Source of the DNA: Myxococcota bacterium
GTDB lineage: Bacteria > Myxococcota_A > UBA9160 > UBA4427
Direction: 5' to 3'
NCBI GenBank assembly: GCA_965250285.1
Contig: OZ252299.1
Coordinates: 3,424,001-3,488,000, forward strand
Length of the DNA: 64,000 nt
Part shown: piece after piece, positions 41,780 through 54,282 of the stretch
Layout: every line of letters begins with the position of its first letter
How positions within the stretch are numbered: position 1 is the first letter of the stretch
Made by a program: the position numbers and the translations under genes
Notes under the pieces: generated by a model
Seen by the model: only the letters and a program-made list of their open reading frames with translations
The model's database searches: none
What the model was told of the DNA's origin: nothing

Positions 41780-44371
41780 GTGACAGACGCATCCTCGCAG
41801 AACGACGAAGCGACCGAAGCCTCGACGCCGGGGCCGCCCGACGATCGCCCGCGGCTCGGCGAGTACGTGCCCGAGGGCGAACTCGTCGACGGTTCGGCGA
41901 TCCTCGATCGATTCATGCGCTGGGTCGCCGACACCGGGCTCACCCTCTACGAAGCACAGGAGGAAGCGCTGCTCGAGTTGATGGCGGGGCAGCACGTCAT
42001 CCTGTCGACGCCGACCGGAAGCGGCAAGAGTCTCGTCGCGCTCGGCATGCACTACATGGCGATGTGCCAGGGCAAGCGCTCGTTCTACACCGCGCCCATC
42101 AAGGCGCTCGTGAGCGAGAAGTTCTTCGATCTCTGTGAAGCCTTCGGCGCCGAGCACGTCGGCATGCTCACGGGCGACGCGACCATCAACTGGAGCGCGC
42201 CGATCGTGTGCTGCACGGCCGAGGTCCTCGCGAACATGGCGATCTCGAGCGGCGCACGCACCGATGCGCCCTGTGTCGTGATGGACGAATTTCACTACTA
42301 CGGCGACCGCGACCGCGGCGTGGCCTGGCAGCAACCCCTGCTCGAGCTCGCGCGCACCCAGTTCCTGCTCATGTCGGCCACGCTGGGCGATACGTCCGAG
42401 ATCGAGCGGCACGTCGAAGACGTGACGGGACGAGCCGTTTCACGCGTTCACTCCGACGAACGCCCGGTCCCGCTCGACTTCAGCTACGTCGAGACCGCCG
42501 TCCATGAGACGGTCGAGTCGCTGCTCCACGGTCACAAGGCGCCCATCTACATCGTCCACTTCACGCAGCGCGAAGCCGCCGAGCAGGCCCAGGCGCTGAC
42601 CAGTGCACAGATCACCGACAAAGAAGAGAAGAAGGCCGTCCAGAAGGCAATTGCGGGGTTTCGCTTCGACTCGCCCTACGGAAAGGACGTGAAGCGCATC
42701 CTGGGCCACGGGATCGGGCTCCACCACGCGGGTCTGCTGCCCAAGTATCGGCTGCTGGTCGAGCGGCTCGCCCAGCAGGGCCTTCTCAAGGTCATCTGCG
42801 GCACCGACACTCTGGGCGTCGGCGTGAACGTGCCGATTCGCTCCGTGCTCTTCTCGAAGCTCTGCAAGTTCGACGGCGAGAAGACCGCGATCCTGTCGGT
42901 GCGCGACTTCAAGCAGATCGCCGGGCGAGCCGGGCGCCGGGGCTTCGACGACGCCGGCAGCGTCATCGTCCAGGCACCCGAGCACGTCATCGAGAACAAG
43001 AAGCTCGAAGCGAAGGCCGCGCAGAAGCCCGGCCGCAAGAAGGTCGTCAAGAAGAAGCCGCCGACGCGCGGCTACGTGGCATGGAGCGATGAGACGCTCG
43101 AGCGACTGATCGAGAGCCCACCCGAGACCCTGAGCTCGCGCTTTCGCATCGACCACGGTCTGCTGATCGGCTGCCTCAAGGCCGAGGCCGCGGGCGGCGC
43201 CGCGGGCTATCGGCGTGTACTCGAGCTGATCGATCGCTGCCACGAACCCGCCGCAGCGAAGCCAGGGCTTCGTCGGGACGCCGCCGCACTCTTCCGCTCG
43301 CTGCGTGTCGCGGGCGTCGTCGAAGTCGATCGCGGATCGCACGGCGGCGAGATCCGGGTCAGCGAAGATCTCGACGCCGACTTCTCACTGCACCACGCCC
43401 TTTCGCTCTATCTCGTCGAGGCCGCGTCCGCGCTCGACCCGTCCGCTGACTCGACCCCGGTCGACGTGCTCGCCTTCACGGAGGCCATCCTCGAACAGCC
43501 GCGGCCGATCCTCATCGCCATGGAGAAGAAGGCCCGCGGCGACGCGATCGCAGCGATGAAGGCCGAGGGGATCGAGTACGACGAGCGCATGGAGAGACTC
43601 GAGAAGATCACGTACCCGAAGCCCAACGAAGACCTCATCTACGAGACGTTCGCGCTGTTTCGCGACGCGCATCCCTGGGTGGGGGCCGAGGCGATTCGGC
43701 CGAAGGGCGTCGCACGCGAGATGTTCGATGGGCTCGCCGCGTTCGACGACCACGTGAAGCGCATGGGCGTCGCGCGCGTCGAGGGCGTGCTGCTTCGCTA
43801 TCTCGGCCAGGTGCACGACACGCTGGCGCGCTCCCTGCCCGCTCCGCTCCGCACGCCCGCCGTGCAAGAGATGATCGGCTACTTCCGCTCGCTGATCGCT
43901 CGCGTCGACACGAGCCTGCTCCAGGAGTGGGAGAAGCTCGTGCACCCCGACGAGGACGACGCGGCGGCCGAGACGGCGGCCCGCGCGTACGACCTCGCGC
44001 AAGACGAGGCCGCGCTGCGCGCACGCATCCGGAGCGAAGTCGGCGGGCTGCTGCGTGCGATCGCGCACGGCGAGCTCGTCGAAGCCGCCGAGCGGCTCCG
44101 CCCCCGCGACGGGGGTGCCTGGTCGTCGAGCGCGCTCGAGCGCGAGCTCGCGAGCTTCTACGACGAGTTCGAGCGGGTTCGCTTCGACCCGACCGCGCGC
44201 CAGGGCCACTACACGGTGATCGAAGATGCGGGGCCGCGTCGCTGGCGGGTCCGCCAGGTGCTGCTCGACGAGCGCGACGAGGGCGTGTTCTACCTCGATC
44301 TCGAGGTCGACCTGACGGACGAAGTCAATCCCGAAGGCCCATTGCTCGACCTGCGCGCCGTCGCCAGCTAG
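41780..44371 (+). CDS. Ski2-like DExH helicase (DUF3516 type)
   Basis: TPTGSGKS, APIKALVSEKF, MDEFH, MSAT, HHAG, TDTLGVGVN, QIAGRAGR. Confidence 0.93.
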   Translation: MTDASSQNDEATEASTPGPPDDRPRLGEYVPEGELVDGSAILDRFMRWVADTGLTLYEAQEEALLELMAGQHVILSTPTGSGKSLVALGMHYMAMCQGKRSFYTAPIKALVSEKFFDLCEAFGAEHVGMLTGDATINWSAPIVCCTAEVLANMAISSGARTDAPCVVMDEFHYYGDRDRGVAWQQPLLELARTQFLLMSATLGDTSEIERHVEDVTGRAVSRVHSDERPVPLDFSYVETAVHETVESLLHGHKAPIYIVHFTQREAAEQAQALTSAQITDKEEKKAVQKAIAGFRFDSPYGKDVKRILGHGIGLHHAGLLPKYRLLVERLAQQGLLKVICGTDTLGVGVNVPIRSVLFSKLCKFDGEKTAILSVRDFKQIAGRAGRRGFDDAGSVIVQAPEHVIENKKLEAKAAQKPGRKKVVKKKPPTRGYVAWSDETLERLIESPPETLSSRFRIDHGLLIGCLKAEAAGGAAGYRRVLELIDRCHEPAAAKPGLRRDAAALFRSLRVAGVVEVDRGSHGGEIRVSEDLDADFSLHHALSLYLVEAASALDPSADSTPVDVLAFTEAILEQPRPILIAMEKKARGDAIAAMKAEGIEYDERMERLEKITYPKPNEDLIYETFALFRDAHPWVGAEAIRPKGVAREMFDGLAAFDDHVKRMGVARVEGVLLRYLGQVHDTLARSLPAPLRTPAVQEMIGYFRSLIARVDTSLLQEWEKLVHPDEDDAAAETAARAYDLAQDEAALRARIRSEVGGLLRAIAHGELVEAAERLRPRDGGAWSSSALERELASFYDEFERVRFDPTARQGHYTVIEDAGPRRWRVRQVLLDERDEGVFYLDLEVDLTDEVNPEGPLLDLRAVAS

Positions 44372-44538
44372 CGATGCTCTGCAGAACTCGCTCCCCGCAC
44401 GCGAGAACAGCTCTGGGGGGTGAACTCGATGGCTGATCAGCAGGCGTTCGCGGGCGAGGCTTGGAAGCGGAAAGGCAATTCGACGCGCCGCGAGCGCTCC
44501 CTCGCCGAGAGTTCTGCGCTGCGACCGAAGCGCCCCGA

Positions 44539-44656
44539 GGCCGGGGCAGGCGGGGGTACCGCGCGCAGTTCGCAGGCGCGACGGGCGCAGCAAACGAGCT
44601 TCCCAGACAGGTCGCGCCGAGAATGTCTGAGCACGGTGCCCCCGCCTGCGCCGGCC
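44539..44656. repeat. Long inverted repeat / stem-loop (REP-like)
   Basis: 44539-44564 is complementary to 44631-44656 (23/26); inner stem GGCGCGAC/GTCGCGCC. Confidence 0.7.
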
Positions 44657-44724
44657 CTGCGACGGCGGACCGTGCGGAGGTTCCCTAGGCGCCGGGGCCA
44701 CCAGCCACGGGCTGGGGCCGCCCC

Positions 44725-45654
44725 CTAGGCATCGGAGTCTTCCGCCGGCGCGCGGCCGGCCGACGGCGCTTCGAGATCGGCGTAGCCCGCGAGCTCACGC
44801 TCATATGCATCGAAGCCGACACGCTCGCGCAGCGCGGCGAACGAGAGCATGTCTTCGGGCGTGCGACCGGCACGCAGCTCGTCCAGCGCACGCTCCATCG
44901 CCGCGATGGCCGCGGACAGGAGCGTGAGGGGGTAGGCGGCGAGCTGATAGCCCATCGACTCGAGGCGCTCGGGCGAGAGCAGCGGGGTGCCACCCCCCTC
45001 GAGCATGTTCGCCATCTTGGGCCCCGGAATCGCCCGACAGAGCCGCTCCATTTCGAGCTCGGTCTGCGGGGCCTCGAAGAAGACGAGGTCGGCGCCGAGA
45101 TCGTGGAACGCGAGGCAGCGCTCGAGGGCTTCGTCGAACCCGTCGGTGGCCCGCGCGTCGGTGCGCGCCATGACGAGCACGTCGGCGCCCGCGTCGCGTG
45201 CGTCGACGGCGGCGCGCACGCGCTGCATCGCCTCGGCGCGCGGCACGACCGCTTTCCCACTCGTATGACCACACCGTTTCGGCGCCACTTGATCTTCGAT
45301 CATCGCGCAGGCGAACCCGGCGCGTGCGTACGTCTCGACCGTGCGCTTCACGTTCATCGGATTGCCGTAGCCGGTGTCCGCATCGCCCAGCACGGGAATG
45401 TCGACCGCTCCGCAGATCTGTCGGCCCTGATCGACCATCTCGCCGAACGAGATCAGACCGGTGTCGGGCAGCGCAAGACGAGCCGCCGAGACCGCGAAGC
45501 CGCTCATGAACGTGAGATCGAAGCCCGCGCGCTCGATGAGACGTGCCGACATCGCGTCGAAGCAGCACGGCATCACGTGGAGCCCACCCGATTCGAGGAG
45601 GCGCGCGAGCCGCGCGCGAGGCGTCGATCGTTCGGCATCGGATTCGAAGGTCAT
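44725..45654 (-). CDS. Isocitrate lyase/PEP mutase family protein
   Basis: DAMSA, LPD, DADTGYG, IEDQVAPKRCGH, ARTD. Confidence 0.93.
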   Translation of the reverse strand: MTFESDAERSTPRARLARLLESGGLHVMPCCFDAMSARLIERAGFDLTFMSGFAVSAARLALPDTGLISFGEMVDQGRQICGAVDIPVLGDADTGYGNPMNVKRTVETYARAGFACAMIEDQVAPKRCGHTSGKAVVPRAEAMQRVRAAVDARDAGADVLVMARTDARATDGFDEALERCLAFHDLGADLVFFEAPQTELEMERLCRAIPGPKMANMLEGGGTPLLSPERLESMGYQLAAYPLTLLSAAIAAMERALDELRAGRTPEDMLSFAALRERVGFDAYERELAGYADLEAPSAGRAPAEDSDA

Positions 45655-45755
45655 CGTGCGGTCGCCCCGAGTCGCCCGGCCAGCGCGCGCGGCCGAGATC
45701 GCTCCGCAGGCTAGCACCGCGCCGGCTGCGGCCGGCGCCCGTGGCACAACCCGGG

Positions 45756-47537
45756 CTAGCGCTCGTAAGCGCCGACCTCATCGTCGGCCGACATCAGGCC
45801 AGGCAGATCGATCGTGAAGGTCGTCCCGGCCTGGGGGGTCGACTCGACGTTGATCGTGCCGCCGTGGTTGCGAACGATGTGATAGCAGATGGCGAGACCG
45901 AGCCCCGTGCCTTCGCCCACCGGTTTCGTGGTGAAGAACGGGTCGAAGATGCGATCGCGGAGTGCGGCCGGGATGCCGCAGCCGTCGTCGTGTACGCGCA
46001 GGATCGCACCGCCCGTACGCGCCTCGGACGAGACGACGACGCGCCCTTCTTCGCCGACCGCATGGATCGCATTCACGACGAGGTTCACGATCACCTGCTC
46101 GAGCTCGCCCCGGCGGCAAGCGACATCGGGCAGCGCGCGATCGAGTCGAAGATCGAGCTCGACGCCTGCCGCCGCGCCCGAAAGCGCCACCCGCACGGCG
46201 CGTTCGACGAGCTCGTTCGGGTCGACCACCGTCCGCTCTCCCTGCGCTGGCTCGGAGAAGCCCTGGACGTTGCGGACGAGCGCGGTGACACGGTCGACGC
46301 CCTCGAGCGACTCGCCGATCAGGTCGTCGCCCTCTTCGACGATGTCCTGGGCGCGTTCGCCCAGGCCGGCCTTGTCGACGTCGAGGGTCAGCACCTGCCA
46401 ATGCAACTTGAGATCGGTGAGGCTGCCTCGAACTTCGAGCATCGGGCGCATGATCTCGCGCGCGATCCCAGCGCTCAGATCGCCGACTGCAGCCAGTCGG
46501 GCCGAGTTGACCAGACGATGGCGGAGCGCGGCGACGTCTCGGCGATCCCGCACGATGAGCGCGTAGCCCACCGGGCCGCGCCGCTCGTGCACGACGGCCA
46601 CGGGCGAGGCGACCACCGGCAGATCCCGCCCATCGCCCCGCCGCAGCACCAGCTCGGTCCCGGGCGCGACGTCGTCGAGCGAGCGTGTCATGCGCGGAAT
46701 CAGGTCGTGCACGCTGCGCCGCGCGGCTTCAGCCGGCGCCAGGTCGGCCAGCTCGGCCAGATGCGGATTCAGATAGCGGATCGAGCCGTCGCGTCGAACC
46801 AAGGCGACACCGTCGGGCAGTGAGCCGATGATCTCCTCGGCGAAGGCGTCAGCCGAGAGGAGCGAGAACCCGTAGCGCTGGAGATGGACCGCGATGACGC
46901 CGCAGGCGACCGCGAGCGCGGTGCTGCCCATGAGCGGGGGATAGATGTCCATCAGGGGCAGCAGCGCATCGCACACAACGGCGAGCACCAGGGCCGCGCC
47001 CAGGCTGGCGACGACGACCGTCGTGGTTCGACGCTCACCCCCCGATCCGTTCTGCGGCGCGGACGCGCGCCAAGCGACGAGCACGAGGATCGCCGGTACG
47101 ACCGCGATCGCGAGCGCCGGAGCGAAGAGCCAGCCGTACTCGAGCCGCCAGCCCGTGGGCGGCGTCGCCTCGAGCGAGATCAGGCCCCACGGCGTGAAGG
47201 CATAGGTCACGGCGAAGAGCGCGCTCAGCCCGTAGAGCCATGGGGTCAGCCGATGAATCGAAGACCGACTGTTGCCGCGCAGCTCGGCGAACGTGTGAAA
47301 GAAGAAGGCCGAAACGGGGATCCAGCCGAGCCCGGTCAGCCGCATGATCGCGGCCGCGCTCTCGTTCGACGGCGCCATCGCGCAGAGCGACTCGCAGAGC
47401 GCCCACCAACCCACGCAGCCGATGACGGCGCCCATCAGGCGATTCGGTCGGAAGCCGGGGTCGCGCACGATGATCGCGGTTGCGAGCGCAATGCACGCCA
47501 TCGCCGTGAGCATCTTGAAGAGGATGAGCGTGCTCAC
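45756..47537 (-). CDS. Membrane (7TM-like) PAS histidine kinase with intact ATPase domain but no phospho-acceptor His
   Basis: TM region, PAS (LPDGVALV), H-box reads AGIAREIMRP, N box NLVVNA, G1 DDGCGI, F FDPFFTTK, G2 GTGLGL. Confidence 0.9.
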   Translation of the reverse strand: MSTLILFKMLTAMACIALATAIIVRDPGFRPNRLMGAVIGCVGWWALCESLCAMAPSNESAAAIMRLTGLGWIPVSAFFFHTFAELRGNSRSSIHRLTPWLYGLSALFAVTYAFTPWGLISLEATPPTGWRLEYGWLFAPALAIAVVPAILVLVAWRASAPQNGSGGERRTTTVVVASLGAALVLAVVCDALLPLMDIYPPLMGSTALAVACGVIAVHLQRYGFSLLSADAFAEEIIGSLPDGVALVRRDGSIRYLNPHLAELADLAPAEAARRSVHDLIPRMTRSLDDVAPGTELVLRRGDGRDLPVVASPVAVVHERRGPVGYALIVRDRRDVAALRHRLVNSARLAAVGDLSAGIAREIMRPMLEVRGSLTDLKLHWQVLTLDVDKAGLGERAQDIVEEGDDLIGESLEGVDRVTALVRNVQGFSEPAQGERTVVDPNELVERAVRVALSGAAAGVELDLRLDRALPDVACRRGELEQVIVNLVVNAIHAVGEEGRVVVSSEARTGGAILRVHDDGCGIPAALRDRIFDPFFTTKPVGEGTGLGLAICYHIVRNHGGTINVESTPQAGTTFTIDLPGLMSADDEVGAYER

Positions 47538-49306
47538 GCAACGCCCTCCCCGGGTCGGACCGCGTCCGTCTCGTGGGGCAACGCATCGTCTTCGACGGGA
47601 AAGAGCAGGCGCACGCGGGTGAAGCCGTCGTCGAACTCCTCGACCTCGAAGTCGCCGCCTTCTTCTTCGACGATCTCACGCGCGATCACGAGCTGGATGC
47701 CGCCCGACGCCACGCGACCTGCCGGCTCCGACATGCGCGCGGCCCGGTCGGTGCGGAGCTCGAAGACGATCTGAACGTGGTCTGCGTCGAGCGACGTGCC
47801 GACCTCGACGCCCTGGCCGTCGGCGACGTGCGCGAACGCCCACTGCGCCACTCCGAACAGCGCCTGCTTGAGCTCCTGCCCGCCGATCTCGATGCGCGGC
47901 AGGTCGGCCATGCTGCGCTCGACGCGCTCGCTCGATCCGCGATGCAGCGAGGCGAGCTGCAGTGCGCTCTCGAGCAGCTCGTTCACATCGGCGAGCTGTC
48001 GTCGGCCCTGACCAGCATGGGCGAACGCGCGCACCTCGCGCACGATCGACGAGATGCGGGCGAGACCCGTCAACGCTTCTTCGACGCGGTCCGAGCCCGA
48101 GTCGACGAACTCGGGCGTGCACGCCGGATCCACACCGTCTTCGGCCAGCAGGGCCGCGAGCTCGGCGTAGTGTCGGCGCATCAGATTGAGATTCGCCTGG
48201 ATGTAGGCGACCGGGTTGTTGACCTCGTGCGCGATGCCGGCGGCCATTTCGCCGACGGTCGCCATCTGATTCGCGGTTCGCAGGTGACTGCGCAGGAACG
48301 CCTGCTCTCGCAGGTCGCGGAGCGATACGACGTGGCCGACCGGGCCGCCCTGCCGATCGTGGATCGGCGAGATGCTCACGGCCACCGGGATCGGATCGCG
48401 CTCGAACGGCAGCAGCTCTGACTCGCGCTCGTCGTCGAGCGCCAGCAGCTCGGGCAGCGGCATCAGGATGAGGCTCGAGGCCGAGCGACCGATCAGCTCT
48501 TCTCGCGGCTCACCCATCCACGTCGCCAGCGTCTGGTTCACGCTGCGCAAGCGGCCGTCGGTCTCGATCAGCGCGACACCGCTCGGCAAGCGCTCGAGGA
48601 TGCGCCGGGCGAGACCCGCCTCCGAGATGGCTCCGTCGAAGCCGCTGAAGTAGTGCAGCCAGGCGGCGCCACCGAGCACCGAGATCGCGAGGACGCCCAC
48701 GCGCGGGAAGTCGATGCCCATCATCGGCAGAACGCCCTCGGTCACGAACGCGGCCAGCAGCGGAATCGCGATGAGCACCGCGAGCAGCAGATCGGAGCTG
48801 CGCAGCGGCGCCCGCGCGCTCTTGTCGGTGGTCGCGGCCAGCGCCACGATCGTGATGAGCGGCGGCACGAGCCCCTGCACGAGGATCAGCGGAAAGAGCG
48901 GCCCGGCTTTCAGTCGCCAGATCGTCATGAGCGAAGGGACGACCCCCTCGACCACCCACGGCGTCGCGAGCGCGAGCACGGCGATCGGCAACCCCGTACA
49001 GACGGCGCCCAGCGAGATGATGCGCAGTGCACGCGCGTGGCCGGGACGGAGCGTGCCGAGCGCGAGCGGCAGCAGCGGACCGAGCGCGATCGCCAGGACC
49101 GCGATGATGCGCACCCAGATCACCGCGCTCTCGGCGTCCGGACTGGTCGCCGTCATCAGCTCCATCAGGGCCCAGAGCGACGCGAACGAGAGGATCACGG
49201 CCGAGACCCGGGTCGCAGCGTGCTGAGGCGCACGGGCGACGCTCGCCGCCGCGATGGCGGTTCCGAGGACGCAAGCCGTGAGCGGCACGAAGACGTACGG
49301 ATGCAT
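47534..49306 (-). CDS. Membrane (7TM-like) PAS histidine kinase with intact H-box but degenerate ATPase domain
   Basis: TM region, PAS (LPSGVALI), AGIAHEVNNP; C-terminal domain lacks the N/G1/F/G2 motifs. Start 49306 or 49333. Confidence 0.88.
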   Translation of the reverse strand: MHPYVFVPLTACVLGTAIAAASVARAPQHAATRVSAVILSFASLWALMELMTATSPDAESAVIWVRIIAVLAIALGPLLPLALGTLRPGHARALRIISLGAVCTGLPIAVLALATPWVVEGVVPSLMTIWRLKAGPLFPLILVQGLVPPLITIVALAATTDKSARAPLRSSDLLLAVLIAIPLLAAFVTEGVLPMMGIDFPRVGVLAISVLGGAAWLHYFSGFDGAISEAGLARRILERLPSGVALIETDGRLRSVNQTLATWMGEPREELIGRSASSLILMPLPELLALDDERESELLPFERDPIPVAVSISPIHDRQGGPVGHVVSLRDLREQAFLRSHLRTANQMATVGEMAAGIAHEVNNPVAYIQANLNLMRRHYAELAALLAEDGVDPACTPEFVDSGSDRVEEALTGLARISSIVREVRAFAHAGQGRRQLADVNELLESALQLASLHRGSSERVERSMADLPRIEIGGQELKQALFGVAQWAFAHVADGQGVEVGTSLDADHVQIVFELRTDRAARMSEPAGRVASGGIQLVIAREIVEEEGGDFEVEEFDDGFTRVRLLFPVEDDALPHETDAVRPGEGVA

Positions 49307-49559
49307 GAATCCGGGGCTCCCCGGACGATTCATCGACGCGCCGACACGGCGGCTTGACTTGACGGCACAGGGCTGTCGGCGCCACACTTGCGGCATGCCG
49401 AAGCGTTCCAAAGTCACGGGCAACCGAGACGCAGGCCCCATGCAGGTCATGCGCAGCTCGTTTGCAGCAAGCGTCGAGCGACCTCGCTCGAGCGCCGTGT
49501 CGACCCGCGCCGCGCGCCGCTTCGGCCCCCTGCTCACGACGATCCTGACGCCGACGAAC

Positions 49560-49646
49560 ACGTCCACTCTGACGTCCACTCTGACGTCCACCCCGACGTC
49601 CACCCCGACGTCCACCCCGACGTCCACCCCGACGTCCACCCCGACG
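49560..49646. repeat. 12-bp tandem repeat x7
   Basis: ACGTCCACTCTG x2 then ACGTCCACCCCG x5. Confidence 0.95.
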
Positions 49647-49839
49647 CCCTAGTCGGAAGAACGGATCGCACGACGCGGTGAAGCCGCGACCCGATGACCG
49701 CTCTTCCGACGGACGGAAGGGTGTCTTCGCGAGGTCGCGAACGCCGTGCGTGCAAACGCAGCTCCACGACCTCGCTTCACCGTGTGATCCAGGCCGGCCA
49801 CGCTGGCGGACCACACGACCCAGACGAGGAGGCAAGACC

Positions 49840-50880
49840 GTGGAACGCACGACAACTCGAGAACGAGACGGCGCGAGCCGCCAACCCCAGGGCGTCGACG
49901 TCGGCGTCGTCGGTGCGACGGGCGCCGTCGGCGAGGTGCTGATCCGCCTGCTCTTCGAGCGCGGCTTTCCGGTGCGCGAGCTTCGACCGCTCGCGAGTGA
50001 GCGCTCGGTCGGCCGACGCGTGCTCGCCGGTGGACGCGAATTCGAGGTCCACCAGGCCGATGCGGGGGCCTTCGACGGGCTCGACGTCGTCTTCTTCGCA
50101 GCGACGGGCGGGCTCTCGGGCGAGCTCGCCCCCGCGGTGGTCGAAGCCGGCGCCGTCGCCATCGACAAGTCGAGCACGTTTCGCATGAAAGCGGGCGTCC
50201 CGCTCGTCGTGCCCGAAGTGAACGCACATGCGCTGCGCGACCACGACGGCATCATCGCGTGTCCGAACTGTACGACCATCGGGCTGGTGATGGCGCTCGC
50301 GCCCCTCGAGACCGAGGCACACCTCGACCGGGTCATCGCTACGACGCTGCAGTCGGTTTCGGGCTCCGGGCGGCCGGGCGTCGATGAGCTACATCGGCAG
50401 CTCGCCGACGACGAGGCGGCGCCCGACGTGTTCGCCGCGCCGATCGCCCGCAACGTCGTGCCGCTGTGCGATCAGGCCTTGCCCGACGGCGCGTCGAGCG
50501 AGGAGCACAAGCTGGTCGACGAGACGCGCAAGATCCTCGGCCGCCCCGATCTGCCGGTGCACGCGACGTGTGTCCGCGTCCCGGTCGAGGTCGGGCACTC
50601 GGCGTCGGTGATCGTCGAGACCCGGCGTGACCTCGACGCGGTGGGCGCACGCGCGGCCTGGCGCGCCTTCCCCGGCGTCGAGGTCGTCGACGACTGGCCG
50701 GCCGGCGTGTTCCCGACGCCCCGCGACGTCGAAGGCCGCGACGAGGTGCTCGTCGGGCGCGCGCGCCCCGACGCTGCGACGGGCGGCCTCGCCTTCTTCG
50801 AGGTTTCGGACAACCTGCGCAAGGGCGCCGCGACCAACGCGATCCAGATCGCCGAGACCCTCTTCACGCCCGGTCGCTGA
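49840..50880 (+). CDS. asd: Aspartate-semialdehyde dehydrogenase
   Basis: VGATGAVG, PLVVPEVN, PNCTT, QSVSGSG, CVRVPV..GHS, DNLRKGAATNA; GAGGAGG RBS. Confidence 0.95.
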   Translation: MERTTTRERDGASRQPQGVDVGVVGATGAVGEVLIRLLFERGFPVRELRPLASERSVGRRVLAGGREFEVHQADAGAFDGLDVVFFAATGGLSGELAPAVVEAGAVAIDKSSTFRMKAGVPLVVPEVNAHALRDHDGIIACPNCTTIGLVMALAPLETEAHLDRVIATTLQSVSGSGRPGVDELHRQLADDEAAPDVFAAPIARNVVPLCDQALPDGASSEEHKLVDETRKILGRPDLPVHATCVRVPVEVGHSASVIVETRRDLDAVGARAAWRAFPGVEVVDDWPAGVFPTPRDVEGRDEVLVGRARPDAATGGLAFFEVSDNLRKGAATNAIQIAETLFTPGR

Positions 50881-52297: not shown

Positions 52298-52461
52298 TTA
52301 TGAGAACGCGATTCGAGACATCCGGCCTTTGGTTCGCCACGGGGAAGGGTTCCCGGCCGGTTCGAAAGTGAAAGAAAGCACCCAACCAGGATTCGACAGC
52401 GAAAAGGTCGGCCGGCCGCAGAAGCGGCGCCAACCCGAATCACCCCCACATGGAGATGAAA

Positions 52462-53841
52462 ATGACTCGCAAGCTCGCCCTCATGGCCTTGACCGGTGCA
52501 CTCGTCGTGCCCGGGCTGGCGCTGGCCGACGACGGGATCAGCCCCGGCACGTTCGTGGCCAACAACGTGTGGATGATGCTGGCCGCCGCGCTGGTGTTCA
52601 TCATGCACCTTGGCTTCTCGATGGTCGAGACCGGCCTCACACGCGCCAAGAACACGGTGAACATCCTCTTCAAGAACGTGTTCATCATCTGCGCCGGCAT
52701 CCTCACCTACTACATCATGGGCTTCAACCTGATGTACCCCGGTGACTTCAACGGCTTCGTCGGCTTCGCAGGCTTCGGCCTCGGCGCGGGCTTCGACCCC
52801 GAGTCGGTCACCACGGCCTACGCCGACGGTGGCTACACGTACTGGACCGACTTCCTCTTCCAGGCGATGTTCGCTGCGACCGCGGCGACGATCGTCTCCG
52901 GTGCCGTGGCCGAGCGCATCAAGCTCACCTCGTTCATGGTCTTCGTGATCCCGTTCGTCATGGTCGTCTACACGATCGCGGGCAGCTGGAAGTGGGGCGG
53001 TGGCTTCCTCGACGGCATGGGCTTCTACGACTTCGCGGGTTCGACGCTCGTGCACTCGGTCGGTGGTTGGGGCGCGCTCGTCGGCATCCTCTTCCTCGGA
53101 CCGCGCCTCGGCAAGTACGCCAAGGATGGCCGCATGACGCCGATTCCCGGCTCGAGCATGCCTTCGGCCACGATCGGCGTGTTCCTGCTCTGGCTCGGAT
53201 GGTTCGGCTTCAACGGCGGCTCGGTGCTGTCGGCTGACCCGGCCCTGACCTCGTTCGTGCTCGTCACGACCTGCCTCGCTGCGGCCGCCGGCGGCCTGGG
53301 CGCGATGCTCGCCTACTCGTTCGTGAGCTCGAAGCCCGACCTCTCGATGTCGCTGAACGGCATCCTGGCCGGCCTCGTGGGCATCACGGCCGGTGCGGAC
53401 GTGATCAACCCGCTCGCCGCGATCTTCGTCGGTGCCGTCGCCGGTGCCCTCGTCGTGGCTTCGGTCATCACCTTCGACAAGCTCAAGATCGACGATCCGG
53501 TCGGTGCGACCTCGGTCCACCTCACGTGCGGCATCTGGGGCACGCTGGCCGTCGGCATCTTCTCGACGAACCCCGATCACAGCTTCATGACCCAGCTCAT
53601 CGGCGTGGGGGCCTACGCGATCTTCACGGTGATCTGCTCGGCGATCATCTTCGGTGCGATCAAGGCCACGATCGGCCTGCGCGTCAGCGAAGAAGAGGAG
53701 ATCGAGGGTCTCGACCTGGGCGAGCACGGCATGCACGCCTACGACATCGCTCCCAGCACGGGCCCGTTCGACGACGCCCACCTCCGAGGGGCCGGCAGCG
53801 CTGCCGCCGTCGCCTCGACCAAGCTGGCGACCGAGAGTTAA
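52462..53841 (+). CDS. amtB: Ammonium transporter
   Basis: FQAMFAATAATIVSGAVAER, DFAGSTLVH, LWLGWFGFNGGS, NGILAGLVGIT, IDDPV..VH. Start 52450-52462. Confidence 0.97.
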   Translation: MTRKLALMALTGALVVPGLALADDGISPGTFVANNVWMMLAAALVFIMHLGFSMVETGLTRAKNTVNILFKNVFIICAGILTYYIMGFNLMYPGDFNGFVGFAGFGLGAGFDPESVTTAYADGGYTYWTDFLFQAMFAATAATIVSGAVAERIKLTSFMVFVIPFVMVVYTIAGSWKWGGGFLDGMGFYDFAGSTLVHSVGGWGALVGILFLGPRLGKYAKDGRMTPIPGSSMPSATIGVFLLWLGWFGFNGGSVLSADPALTSFVLVTTCLAAAAGGLGAMLAYSFVSSKPDLSMSLNGILAGLVGITAGADVINPLAAIFVGAVAGALVVASVITFDKLKIDDPVGATSVHLTCGIWGTLAVGIFSTNPDHSFMTQLIGVGAYAIFTVICSAIIFGAIKATIGLRVSEEEEIEGLDLGEHGMHAYDIAPSTGPFDDAHLRGAGSAAAVASTKLATES

Positions 53842-53874
53842 CGCGGGGGCAACAAGAGCCGGGGGGCTCGGTGA

Positions 53875-54282
<408 letters not shown>

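Follow-up and report, generated by a model that had tools for sequence, protein, structure and literature searches.

Within a 64-kb stretch of the genome of a Myxococcota bacterium (a single contig of 6.25 Mb with 68.6% G+C; C1:3424001-3488000, hereafter the window), two adjacent genes encode paralogous membrane sensor kinases with reciprocal defects, and comparative evidence strongly supports the view that they would function together as a heterodimeric, trans-acting kinase. The upstream gene, A, retains the phosphorylatable histidine (His360) of the domain for dimerization and histidine phosphotransfer (DHp), and carries a degenerate catalytic and ATP-binding (CA) domain; the downstream gene, B, has arginine in place of the histidine and an intact CA domain. 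We put the probability that A and B form a membrane heterodimer, in which the CA domain of B phosphorylates His360 of A in trans, at roughly 80%. The arguments for it are the conservation of the split among relatives, purifying selection on both genes, a crossed pattern of erosion in the DHp helices, and the survival of intact ancestral pairs at the same locus. The split is real and conserved, and it is a rare kinase design already known from FasB/FasC of group A Streptococcus, found here as a new variant.

Conservation and selection of the reciprocal defects

An earlier note, made from the letters alone, had described two adjacent genes of ~590 codons with a GTGA overlap and a shared architecture, and the gene coordinates and Pfam matches agree with that description (Table 1); the inferred paralogy is borne out by 29% identity over 582 aligned columns (E = 7e-46). 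In A, Pfam recognizes HisKA_7TM (25.4 bits, below the cut-off of 28.6), PAS_4 and HisKA (26 bits; cut-off 26.9), with a HATPase_c match of only 14.5 bits, and in B it recognizes HisKA_7TM (28.6 bits, equal to the cut-off), PAS and HATPase_c (96.5 bits), with no HisKA at E ≤ 0.1. Both matches to HisKA_7TM (PF16927) span about the whole profile, with scores at or under its cut-off, and neither protein has a Pfam match to Hpt or CheW. The H box of A, AHEVNNP, has the His, acidic +1 and Asn +4 residues of the HisKA type, and none of the five CA motifs is present; the H box of B, AREIMRP, departs from the HisKA type, and its CA domain has the N, G1, F and G2 boxes, as the note had read them. The note had also held that A keeps its histidine codon and lacks all four boxes, which stands, with the amendment that the CA fold is degenerate and not gone. 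An AlphaFold model of A (mean predicted local distance difference test score, pLDDT, 79; 11-row alignment) comprises seven membrane-type helices, the PAS domain, a long helix that includes His360, then helix 2, and an alpha/beta domain like that of CA, in which the order of strands and helices is retained and the lid is short and of low confidence or disordered (model residues 518–531, pLDDT <50).

A read or assembly error at Arg360 of B, which the note had already discounted, is excluded because independent contigs agree over the codon. Over all 3.7 kb the contig of run X1 shows 0 differences (X1 is possibly the source of the assembly), and those of runs X2 (46042–46547) and X3 (46283–48167) cross the Arg codon, likewise with 0 differences; all three runs come from one study.

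Homologues were sought in 41 relatives and, more widely, in 193 genomes from the order and 225 from the class, and ~150 stretches around the best matches were examined, the resulting family and pair counts being lower bounds. Full-length family members (E ≤ 1e-90) occur in at least 36 of 401 genomes sampled from the phylum, all within one class, taken to be UBA9160, with few candidates scored per genome; close relatives of A bear the NCBI labels Myxococcota bacterium (P0017, P0032) and Proteobacteria bacterium (P0016, P0024), and one full-length member (L183) is an intact single copy. In at least 35 cases two members of this family of 7TM-PAS kinases lie directly next to each other. The pattern that the note had proposed looking for in related genomes is present in 29 of the 35, in nine genera and two families and always with the same polarity (A, His+ and CA-dead, upstream; B, H-box-dead and CA-intact, downstream), a count that includes the source genome's pair and one pair divided over two contig ends. 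Three pairs are intact in both members and lie at the same locus (G070, G089 and G091; family f9), and the remaining three (G034, G045 and G048; family f11) follow another pattern. Family genes separated by other genes in two genomes (G037 L032 and G029 L033; both His+) were left out of the adjacent-pair count.

Motifs were scored in 27 complementary pairs (24 of family f1 and three of genus g34 of family f9; nine genera). All 27 A copies have HExxN and none has all five CA motifs (N1 in 3, N2 in 4, G1 in 7, F in 0 and G2 in 2), whereas no B copy has HExxN, and N1, N2, G1 and F are each present in 27/27, with G2 and the full set of five in 24/27; the g34 B copies (3/27) have an altered G2 box, AAGLGL. 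The histidine itself, whose regular presence in B orthologues the note had named as a point to check, is found in only 2/27, with the rest of the H box lost, and eight other residues (R, Q, E, D, A, T, N and G) fill its position. Among 98 single-copy paralogues, His and HExxN are present in 98/98 and all five CA motifs in 97/98. In 33 of the 35 pairs the second gene starts at –4 or –1, overlapping the stop codon of the first (the nearest in-frame start being taken mechanically), and A and B are adjacent wherever contigs permit the check, with a gene of G181 as the sole exception. In five genomes (G005, G007, G018, G021 and G023; 92–97% complete) the pair comprises the only full-length family members found among 32 candidates scored per genome, and therefore no intact paralogue is on hand there to rescue either half; the source genome also encodes three intact paralogues.

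Both genes are under purifying selection. The ratio of nonsynonymous to synonymous substitution rates (dN/dS, Nei–Gojobori; five genome pairs for each gene) is 0.09–0.45 over whole genes, 0.09–0.39 in the dead CA domain of A and 0.07–0.26 in the His-less DHp domain of B, compared with 0.26–0.32 for three intact paralogues, several dS values being near saturation and some segments yielding none. For the transmembrane (TM) regions of both sensors the range is 0.10–0.66. Such selection on both sensors would fit two inputs; the AND logic entertained in the note goes beyond it.

Crossed erosion of the DHp helices

The DHp helices were scored against a profile of intact paralogues, whole-helix scores being obtained from 24 pairs and 87 single copies. 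Mean scores for helix 1 are 3.63 for single copies, 2.76 for A and –1.08 for B, and for helix 2 they are 2.57, 0.02 and 1.67, respectively. With the His column removed, A scores above B on helix 1 in 27/27 pairs; on helix 2, B scores above A in 27/27. The net charge of helix 2 is –4.7 in B and –4.9 in single copies compared to +0.5 in A, and the frequency of acidic residues at four helix-2 positions is 1.00, 0.96 and 0.29, in the same order. The hydrophobic core is retained on all four helices (0.91–1.00) and the proline at +5 is present in 27/27 copies of both A and B; therefore both proteins still look able to build a four-helix bundle. A second histidine, H+69, follows DHp helix 2 in the motif FAHAG (~48017–48028 of A, minus strand), and occurs in 92% of both A copies and single-copy paralogues and in 4% of B copies; it is perhaps part of a docking site for the inactive CA domain.

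According to structural work on such kinases (PMC3904827), the active CA–DHp contact is alike in cis- and trans-acting kinases, the handedness of the loop between helices 1 and 2 decides which chain provides the CA domain, and active kinase dimers are asymmetric, with one CA domain docked and inactive. From these structures it follows that a trans heterodimer would have one face made of A helix 1, B helix 2 and the CA domain of B, and another made of B helix 1, A helix 2 and the CA domain of A. We infer that the first face is fully conserved and the second fully eroded, as predicted for a trans-phosphorylating A/B heterodimer with a single live face. In a homodimer of either protein both faces would instead be half eroded, and a mechanism in cis would not be expected to work at all.

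In the mechanism that we propose, the ATP-binding domain of B would reach His360 of A across the first, live face of the four-helix bundle, and the same face would also bind and dephosphorylate the response regulator through Glu+1 and Asn+4 of A; in HisKA kinases, an acidic residue at +1 is needed for kinase activity and Asn at +4 for phosphatase activity, as stated in PMC3510030. The second face would be dead, with the CA domain of A probably retained as a docked structural brace. Candidates for the input logic are AND, OR, or one composite site. A Foldseek search with the model of A matched PAS/LOV-kinase and other kinase chains, matches that leave cis versus trans handedness unsettled.

Origin of the pair, its regulator and alternative explanations

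In a tree of the sensor region (TM, PAS and S-helix; 145 sequences), the upstream copies of all adjacent pairs cluster (0.986), and the downstream copies cluster together with five other sequences (0.99); the intact pairs of G070, G089 and G091 fall inside these upstream and downstream groups. A PEP-mutase/isocitrate-lyase (ICL) family gene lies directly downstream at 20/28 pair loci and a TesB-type thioesterase gene upstream at 13/28, and flanking genes are common to the intact f9 pairs and the split pairs. This shared setting, together with the tree grouping, indicates that one old tandem duplication survives in both intact and split form. Within the intact pairs, helix 2 of the upstream copy scores lower (0.95–1.78 versus 2.17–2.24), which suggests that asymmetry came before the loss of motifs; in the best tree, genus g34 groups with the intact f9 pairs (89/84, not starred), a position that would make its split independent of the one in family f1. 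The history probably began with the tandem duplication of an orphan 7TM-PAS kinase, passed through a stage in which both copies were intact, and ended in complementary decay leading to mutual dependence, and the duplication with complementary loss put forward in the note finds strong comparative support. A bolder formulation can be offered only tentatively: an obligate orphan HisKA heterodimer in which half-of-sites asymmetry would be hard-wired in two genes and output would need two sensors, split at least twice from a surviving intact pair and forming a natural series from homodimer to heterodimer.

The note's observation that no response regulator lies nearby is upheld, there being no receiver domain in the window; the genome has 57 PF00072 matches, of which the nearest are ~128 kb and ~157 kb from the pair. 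A receiver domain is present at 0/29 pair loci of relatives and at 3/84 single-copy loci, and the family is therefore taken to be orphan. Several other orphan kinases of the source genome carry the helix-1 pattern HE[IL]NNPxx[FY]VxxN, a hint that they may converge on a common regulator in a many-to-one network, and the receiver for A/B is probably shared with the intact paralogues, whose helix-1 surface is identical, and encoded elsewhere. Eight further kinases have a similar helix-1 pattern (G000:C1:682068, 1957527, 2273072, 2920007, 3996419, 4795632, 5109336 and 5676451); seven are without a listed receiver within 6 kb and one adjoins a single-domain receiver and a sigma-54 activator. A single-domain receiver at C1:1957078-1957446, next to a PAS kinase whose H box is similar, would be a speculative candidate partner of A/B. 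As for the signal, no ligand is given for HisKA_7TM in the passages of PMC5847659 consulted.

Several observations weigh against a heterodimeric trans kinase. The helix-2 "surface" positions were picked after the alignment had been seen, and the trans handedness of the A/B DHp domains is itself read from the erosion pattern and nothing else. The genera are related, so that 27/27 does not represent 27 independent events, and the approximately unbiased test does not reject one common origin for the split (p = 0.069; 21 pairs used). A search of the neighbourhood yielded no cognate regulator, the 44 neighbouring proteins scanned with Pfam being metabolic. Partial CA motifs persist in some A copies (N2, G1 and G2 in G009; N2 and G2 in G005), and the two B copies that retain His are those of G005 and G123. 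A lone His+/CA-dead gene in G181 (L162:4978-6882, minus strand) has no His-less partner found in that genome, which is 94% complete and in which the other family members found are intact; a half-dead copy can therefore persist unpaired. The three intact paralogues of the source genome could partner either half. Finally, the three f11 pairs keep His in both members, with a full CA domain upstream and an eroded F box downstream.

The f11 pairs (L029:5580-9082, L265:5033-8480 and L283:4271-7992) possibly represent another route of specialization. Helix 2 of their upstream copies is eroded despite His and a full CA domain, and the downstream copies keep His and helix 2, are without the F-box TTK and have drifted H boxes (HEISGP, HEISNP).

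The strongest alternative, though an unlikely one, is that the two proteins modulate other kinases, A as a phospho-sink or phosphatase-only protein and B as a pseudokinase that heterodimerizes with or scaffolds intact paralogues, in the manner of RetS–GacS or of DivL. Although the three intact paralogues of the source genome share the helix-1 surface, an A-type gene stands alone in G181, and A keeps the Asn+4 needed for HisKA phosphatase activity (PMC3510030), such separate roles sit poorly with the adjacency of A and B wherever contigs permit the check, G181 excepted, the stop/start overlap in 33/35 pairs, the five genomes in which only the pair was found, and the expectation that neither homodimer would keep a complete face, A losing that of helix 2 and B that of helix 1.

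We give appreciably less weight to the idea that an A/B heterodimer has little net output as a kinase and is chiefly a phosphatase, or brake, controlled by a signal and directed at a regulator that many orphan kinases of the same H box share. ATP or ADP binding, for which B retains the motifs, is needed in the phosphatase states of some kinases; HExxN is universal in A (27/27), and the altered G2 box of the g34 B copies (3/27) would also be in keeping with such a role. However, the kinase-specific Glu+1 (PMC3510030) is likewise kept in A in 27/27, and the N, G1 and F motifs of B in 27/27, as for a kinase-competent face. It is highly improbable that the pattern reflects a sequencing artefact or duplicates that were redundant and decayed neutrally, since the variability of the CA domain of A between genera and a frame break in A of G074 are outweighed by agreement of independent contigs, open frames with dN/dS well under 1 in both genes, and the same polarity in nine genera with losses limited to complementary surfaces. 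Strain-specific decay and pseudogene readings are likewise ruled out by dN/dS, contig agreement and motif conservation over the 27 pairs. Frame breaks in one pair member occur at L098:2627-4662 (G074, in A) and L265:5033-7785 (G045), and are either assembly errors or real losses.

Known split kinases and features of the locus

The closest precedent for a trans-acting A/B heterodimer is FasB/FasC, and not CheA3/CheA4 of Rhodobacter sphaeroides, which the note had named. As reported in PMC12675982, FasC requires H246 and not its own kinase domain, two-hybrid assays detect the FasB/FasC heterodimer and neither homodimer, and trans phosphorylation is the model; the TM region of FasB is dispensable, candidate histidines remain in FasB (H284 not excluded), and activating heterodimers of sensor kinases are called rare. 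To judge from that account, the likeness, on the side of A/B a matter of sequence, lies in two adjacent full-length membrane kinase-like paralogues, one of which supplies the histidine and the other the kinase domain. The Fas proteins differ in having a co-transcribed ComE-like regulator (FasA), six TM helices, no PAS domain and the kinase donor encoded first. A/B, in contrast, has a core like that of ZraS and NtrB, seven TM helices with PAS, an orphan status, the His donor first and a destroyed H box in B; selection acts on both of its sensors, and ancestral pairs that are still intact remain at the same locus. A receiver such as the ComE-like regulator of the three-component Fas operon is encoded at none of the 29 pair loci of relatives and nowhere in the window. 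By analogy, A/B would work like FasB/FasC yet stand outside that system, with no adjacent ComE-like regulator and with a different sensor and core.

In CheA3 and CheA4, too, ATP binding and the phosphorylatable His reside on separate proteins, neither of which autophosphorylates alone, but these are class II cytoplasmic proteins (P1/Hpt) split by loss of whole domains, whereas A and B are full-length HisKA-type proteins with 7TM and PAS; the split-kinase census in the same source counted HisKA proteins without a HATPase domain, and not full-length paralogues with reciprocal point decay (PMC3591291). The defects of A and B are also those combined in the laboratory when two mutants of one kinase, the first altered in its His and the second in its N box, are made to complement each other, an assay described for MtrB, in which activity is restored only in trans-acting kinases (PMC5956149); in A and B, by contrast, the defects are natural and fixed in two genes, with erosion of the unused surfaces. 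RetS and GacS of Pseudomonas aeruginosa are likewise two membrane sensor kinases that interact as a heterodimer, but GacS is complete and works alone, and the heterodimer inhibits instead of creating activity (PMC12189002). The 98 single-copy HisKA_7TM-PAS-HisKA-HATPase_c orphan kinases share the architecture and the H-box type (HEINNP) with A/B and are the source of the duplication, yet they are complete in one chain; the nearest solved cores are ZraS 9jfj, ThkA 3a0r and CckA 5idj. Positive complementation results are also reported for EnvZ and NtrB, of which our literature search found no account, and Rv0600c/Rv0601c of M. tuberculosis is reported to be a further split kinase, which the search did not confirm. 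A description of the Myxococcota A/B family was not found in the literature searched, which left out most subscription journals.

Sensor kinases are taught as homodimers, and to the known exceptions the A/B family adds complete loss of His in one partner. Its chief value lies in the crossed-helix signature and in the evolutionary series that it offers. Unlike the Fas case, it comprises natural variants by the dozen, outgroups with a single copy, and ancestral pairs still intact at the locus of the split ones, and with these one can test how obligate heteromers arise from homomers through complementary decay and which DHp surfaces must be present if a partner is to be phosphorylated in trans and a regulator bound. 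From sequence only, the way in which helices 1 and 2 have eroded crosswise offers a readout of cis versus trans. In annotation, genes of this type should be treated neither as pseudogenes nor as a pair of kinases that act independently.

Table 1. Features of the A/B locus (window coordinates)
Feature	Position	Strand	Description
Gene A (His donor)	47534-49306	-	590 aa; 7TM-PAS-DHp (intact H box)-degenerate CA; start MHPY same as in relatives
A HisKA_7TM-like membrane sensor	48650-49282	-	residues 9-219; Pfam and AlphaFold model (seven helices)
A PAS domain	48302-48598	-	residues 237-335; Pfam (PAS_4)
A His360 codon CAC, in HEVNNP	48227-48229	-	Glu+1 (kinase) and Asn+4 (phosphatase) retained
A DHp helix 2	48029-48103	-	~residues 402-426; erosion of acidic outer face, with hydrophobic core preserved
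A degenerate CA domain	47591-47998	-	none of the N, G1, F and G2 boxes remains; short lid
GTGA stop/start overlap of A and B	47534-47537	-	putative translational coupling
Gene B (ATP donor)	45756-47537	-	593 aa; 7TM-PAS-His-less DHp-intact CA
B HisKA_7TM-like membrane sensor	46881-47507	-	residues 11-219; Pfam
B PAS domain	46539-46838	-	residues 234-333; Pfam
B Arg360 codon CGC at phospho-His site, in REIMRP	46458-46460	-	
B DHp helix 2	46263-46337	-	~residues 401-425; acidic face retained as in intact paralogues
B intact CA domain (N, G1, F, G2 boxes)	45801-46106	-	residues 478-579
PEP-mutase/isocitrate-lyase family gene	44725-45654	-	directly downstream of B, same strand; marker of orthologous locus

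A few kb upstream of the pair lie genes that, from their sequence, we take to be amtB and glnK (52450–54282, plus strand; also at L021, L022, L031 and other loci), an amtB-like cluster (c3) being present in 14 of the compared loci and a glnK-like one (c8) in 9; this neighbourhood may reflect synteny and nothing more, or it may point to nitrogen-linked signalling. In eight genomes of genus g14, a conserved protein of ~205 aa (cluster c9; L031:4675-5298 and seven other loci), with no Pfam match at E ≤ 1e-5, is encoded convergently just downstream of the pair. A scan of 44000–50200 returned 0 promoter-like and two terminator-like sites, which is the level of chance. Between A and a divergent gene of the aspartate-semialdehyde dehydrogenase family, a tandem 12-bp repeat (GGGGTGGACGTC type, ~8 copies) occupies positions 49545–49645 and prolongs the open frame of A upstream.

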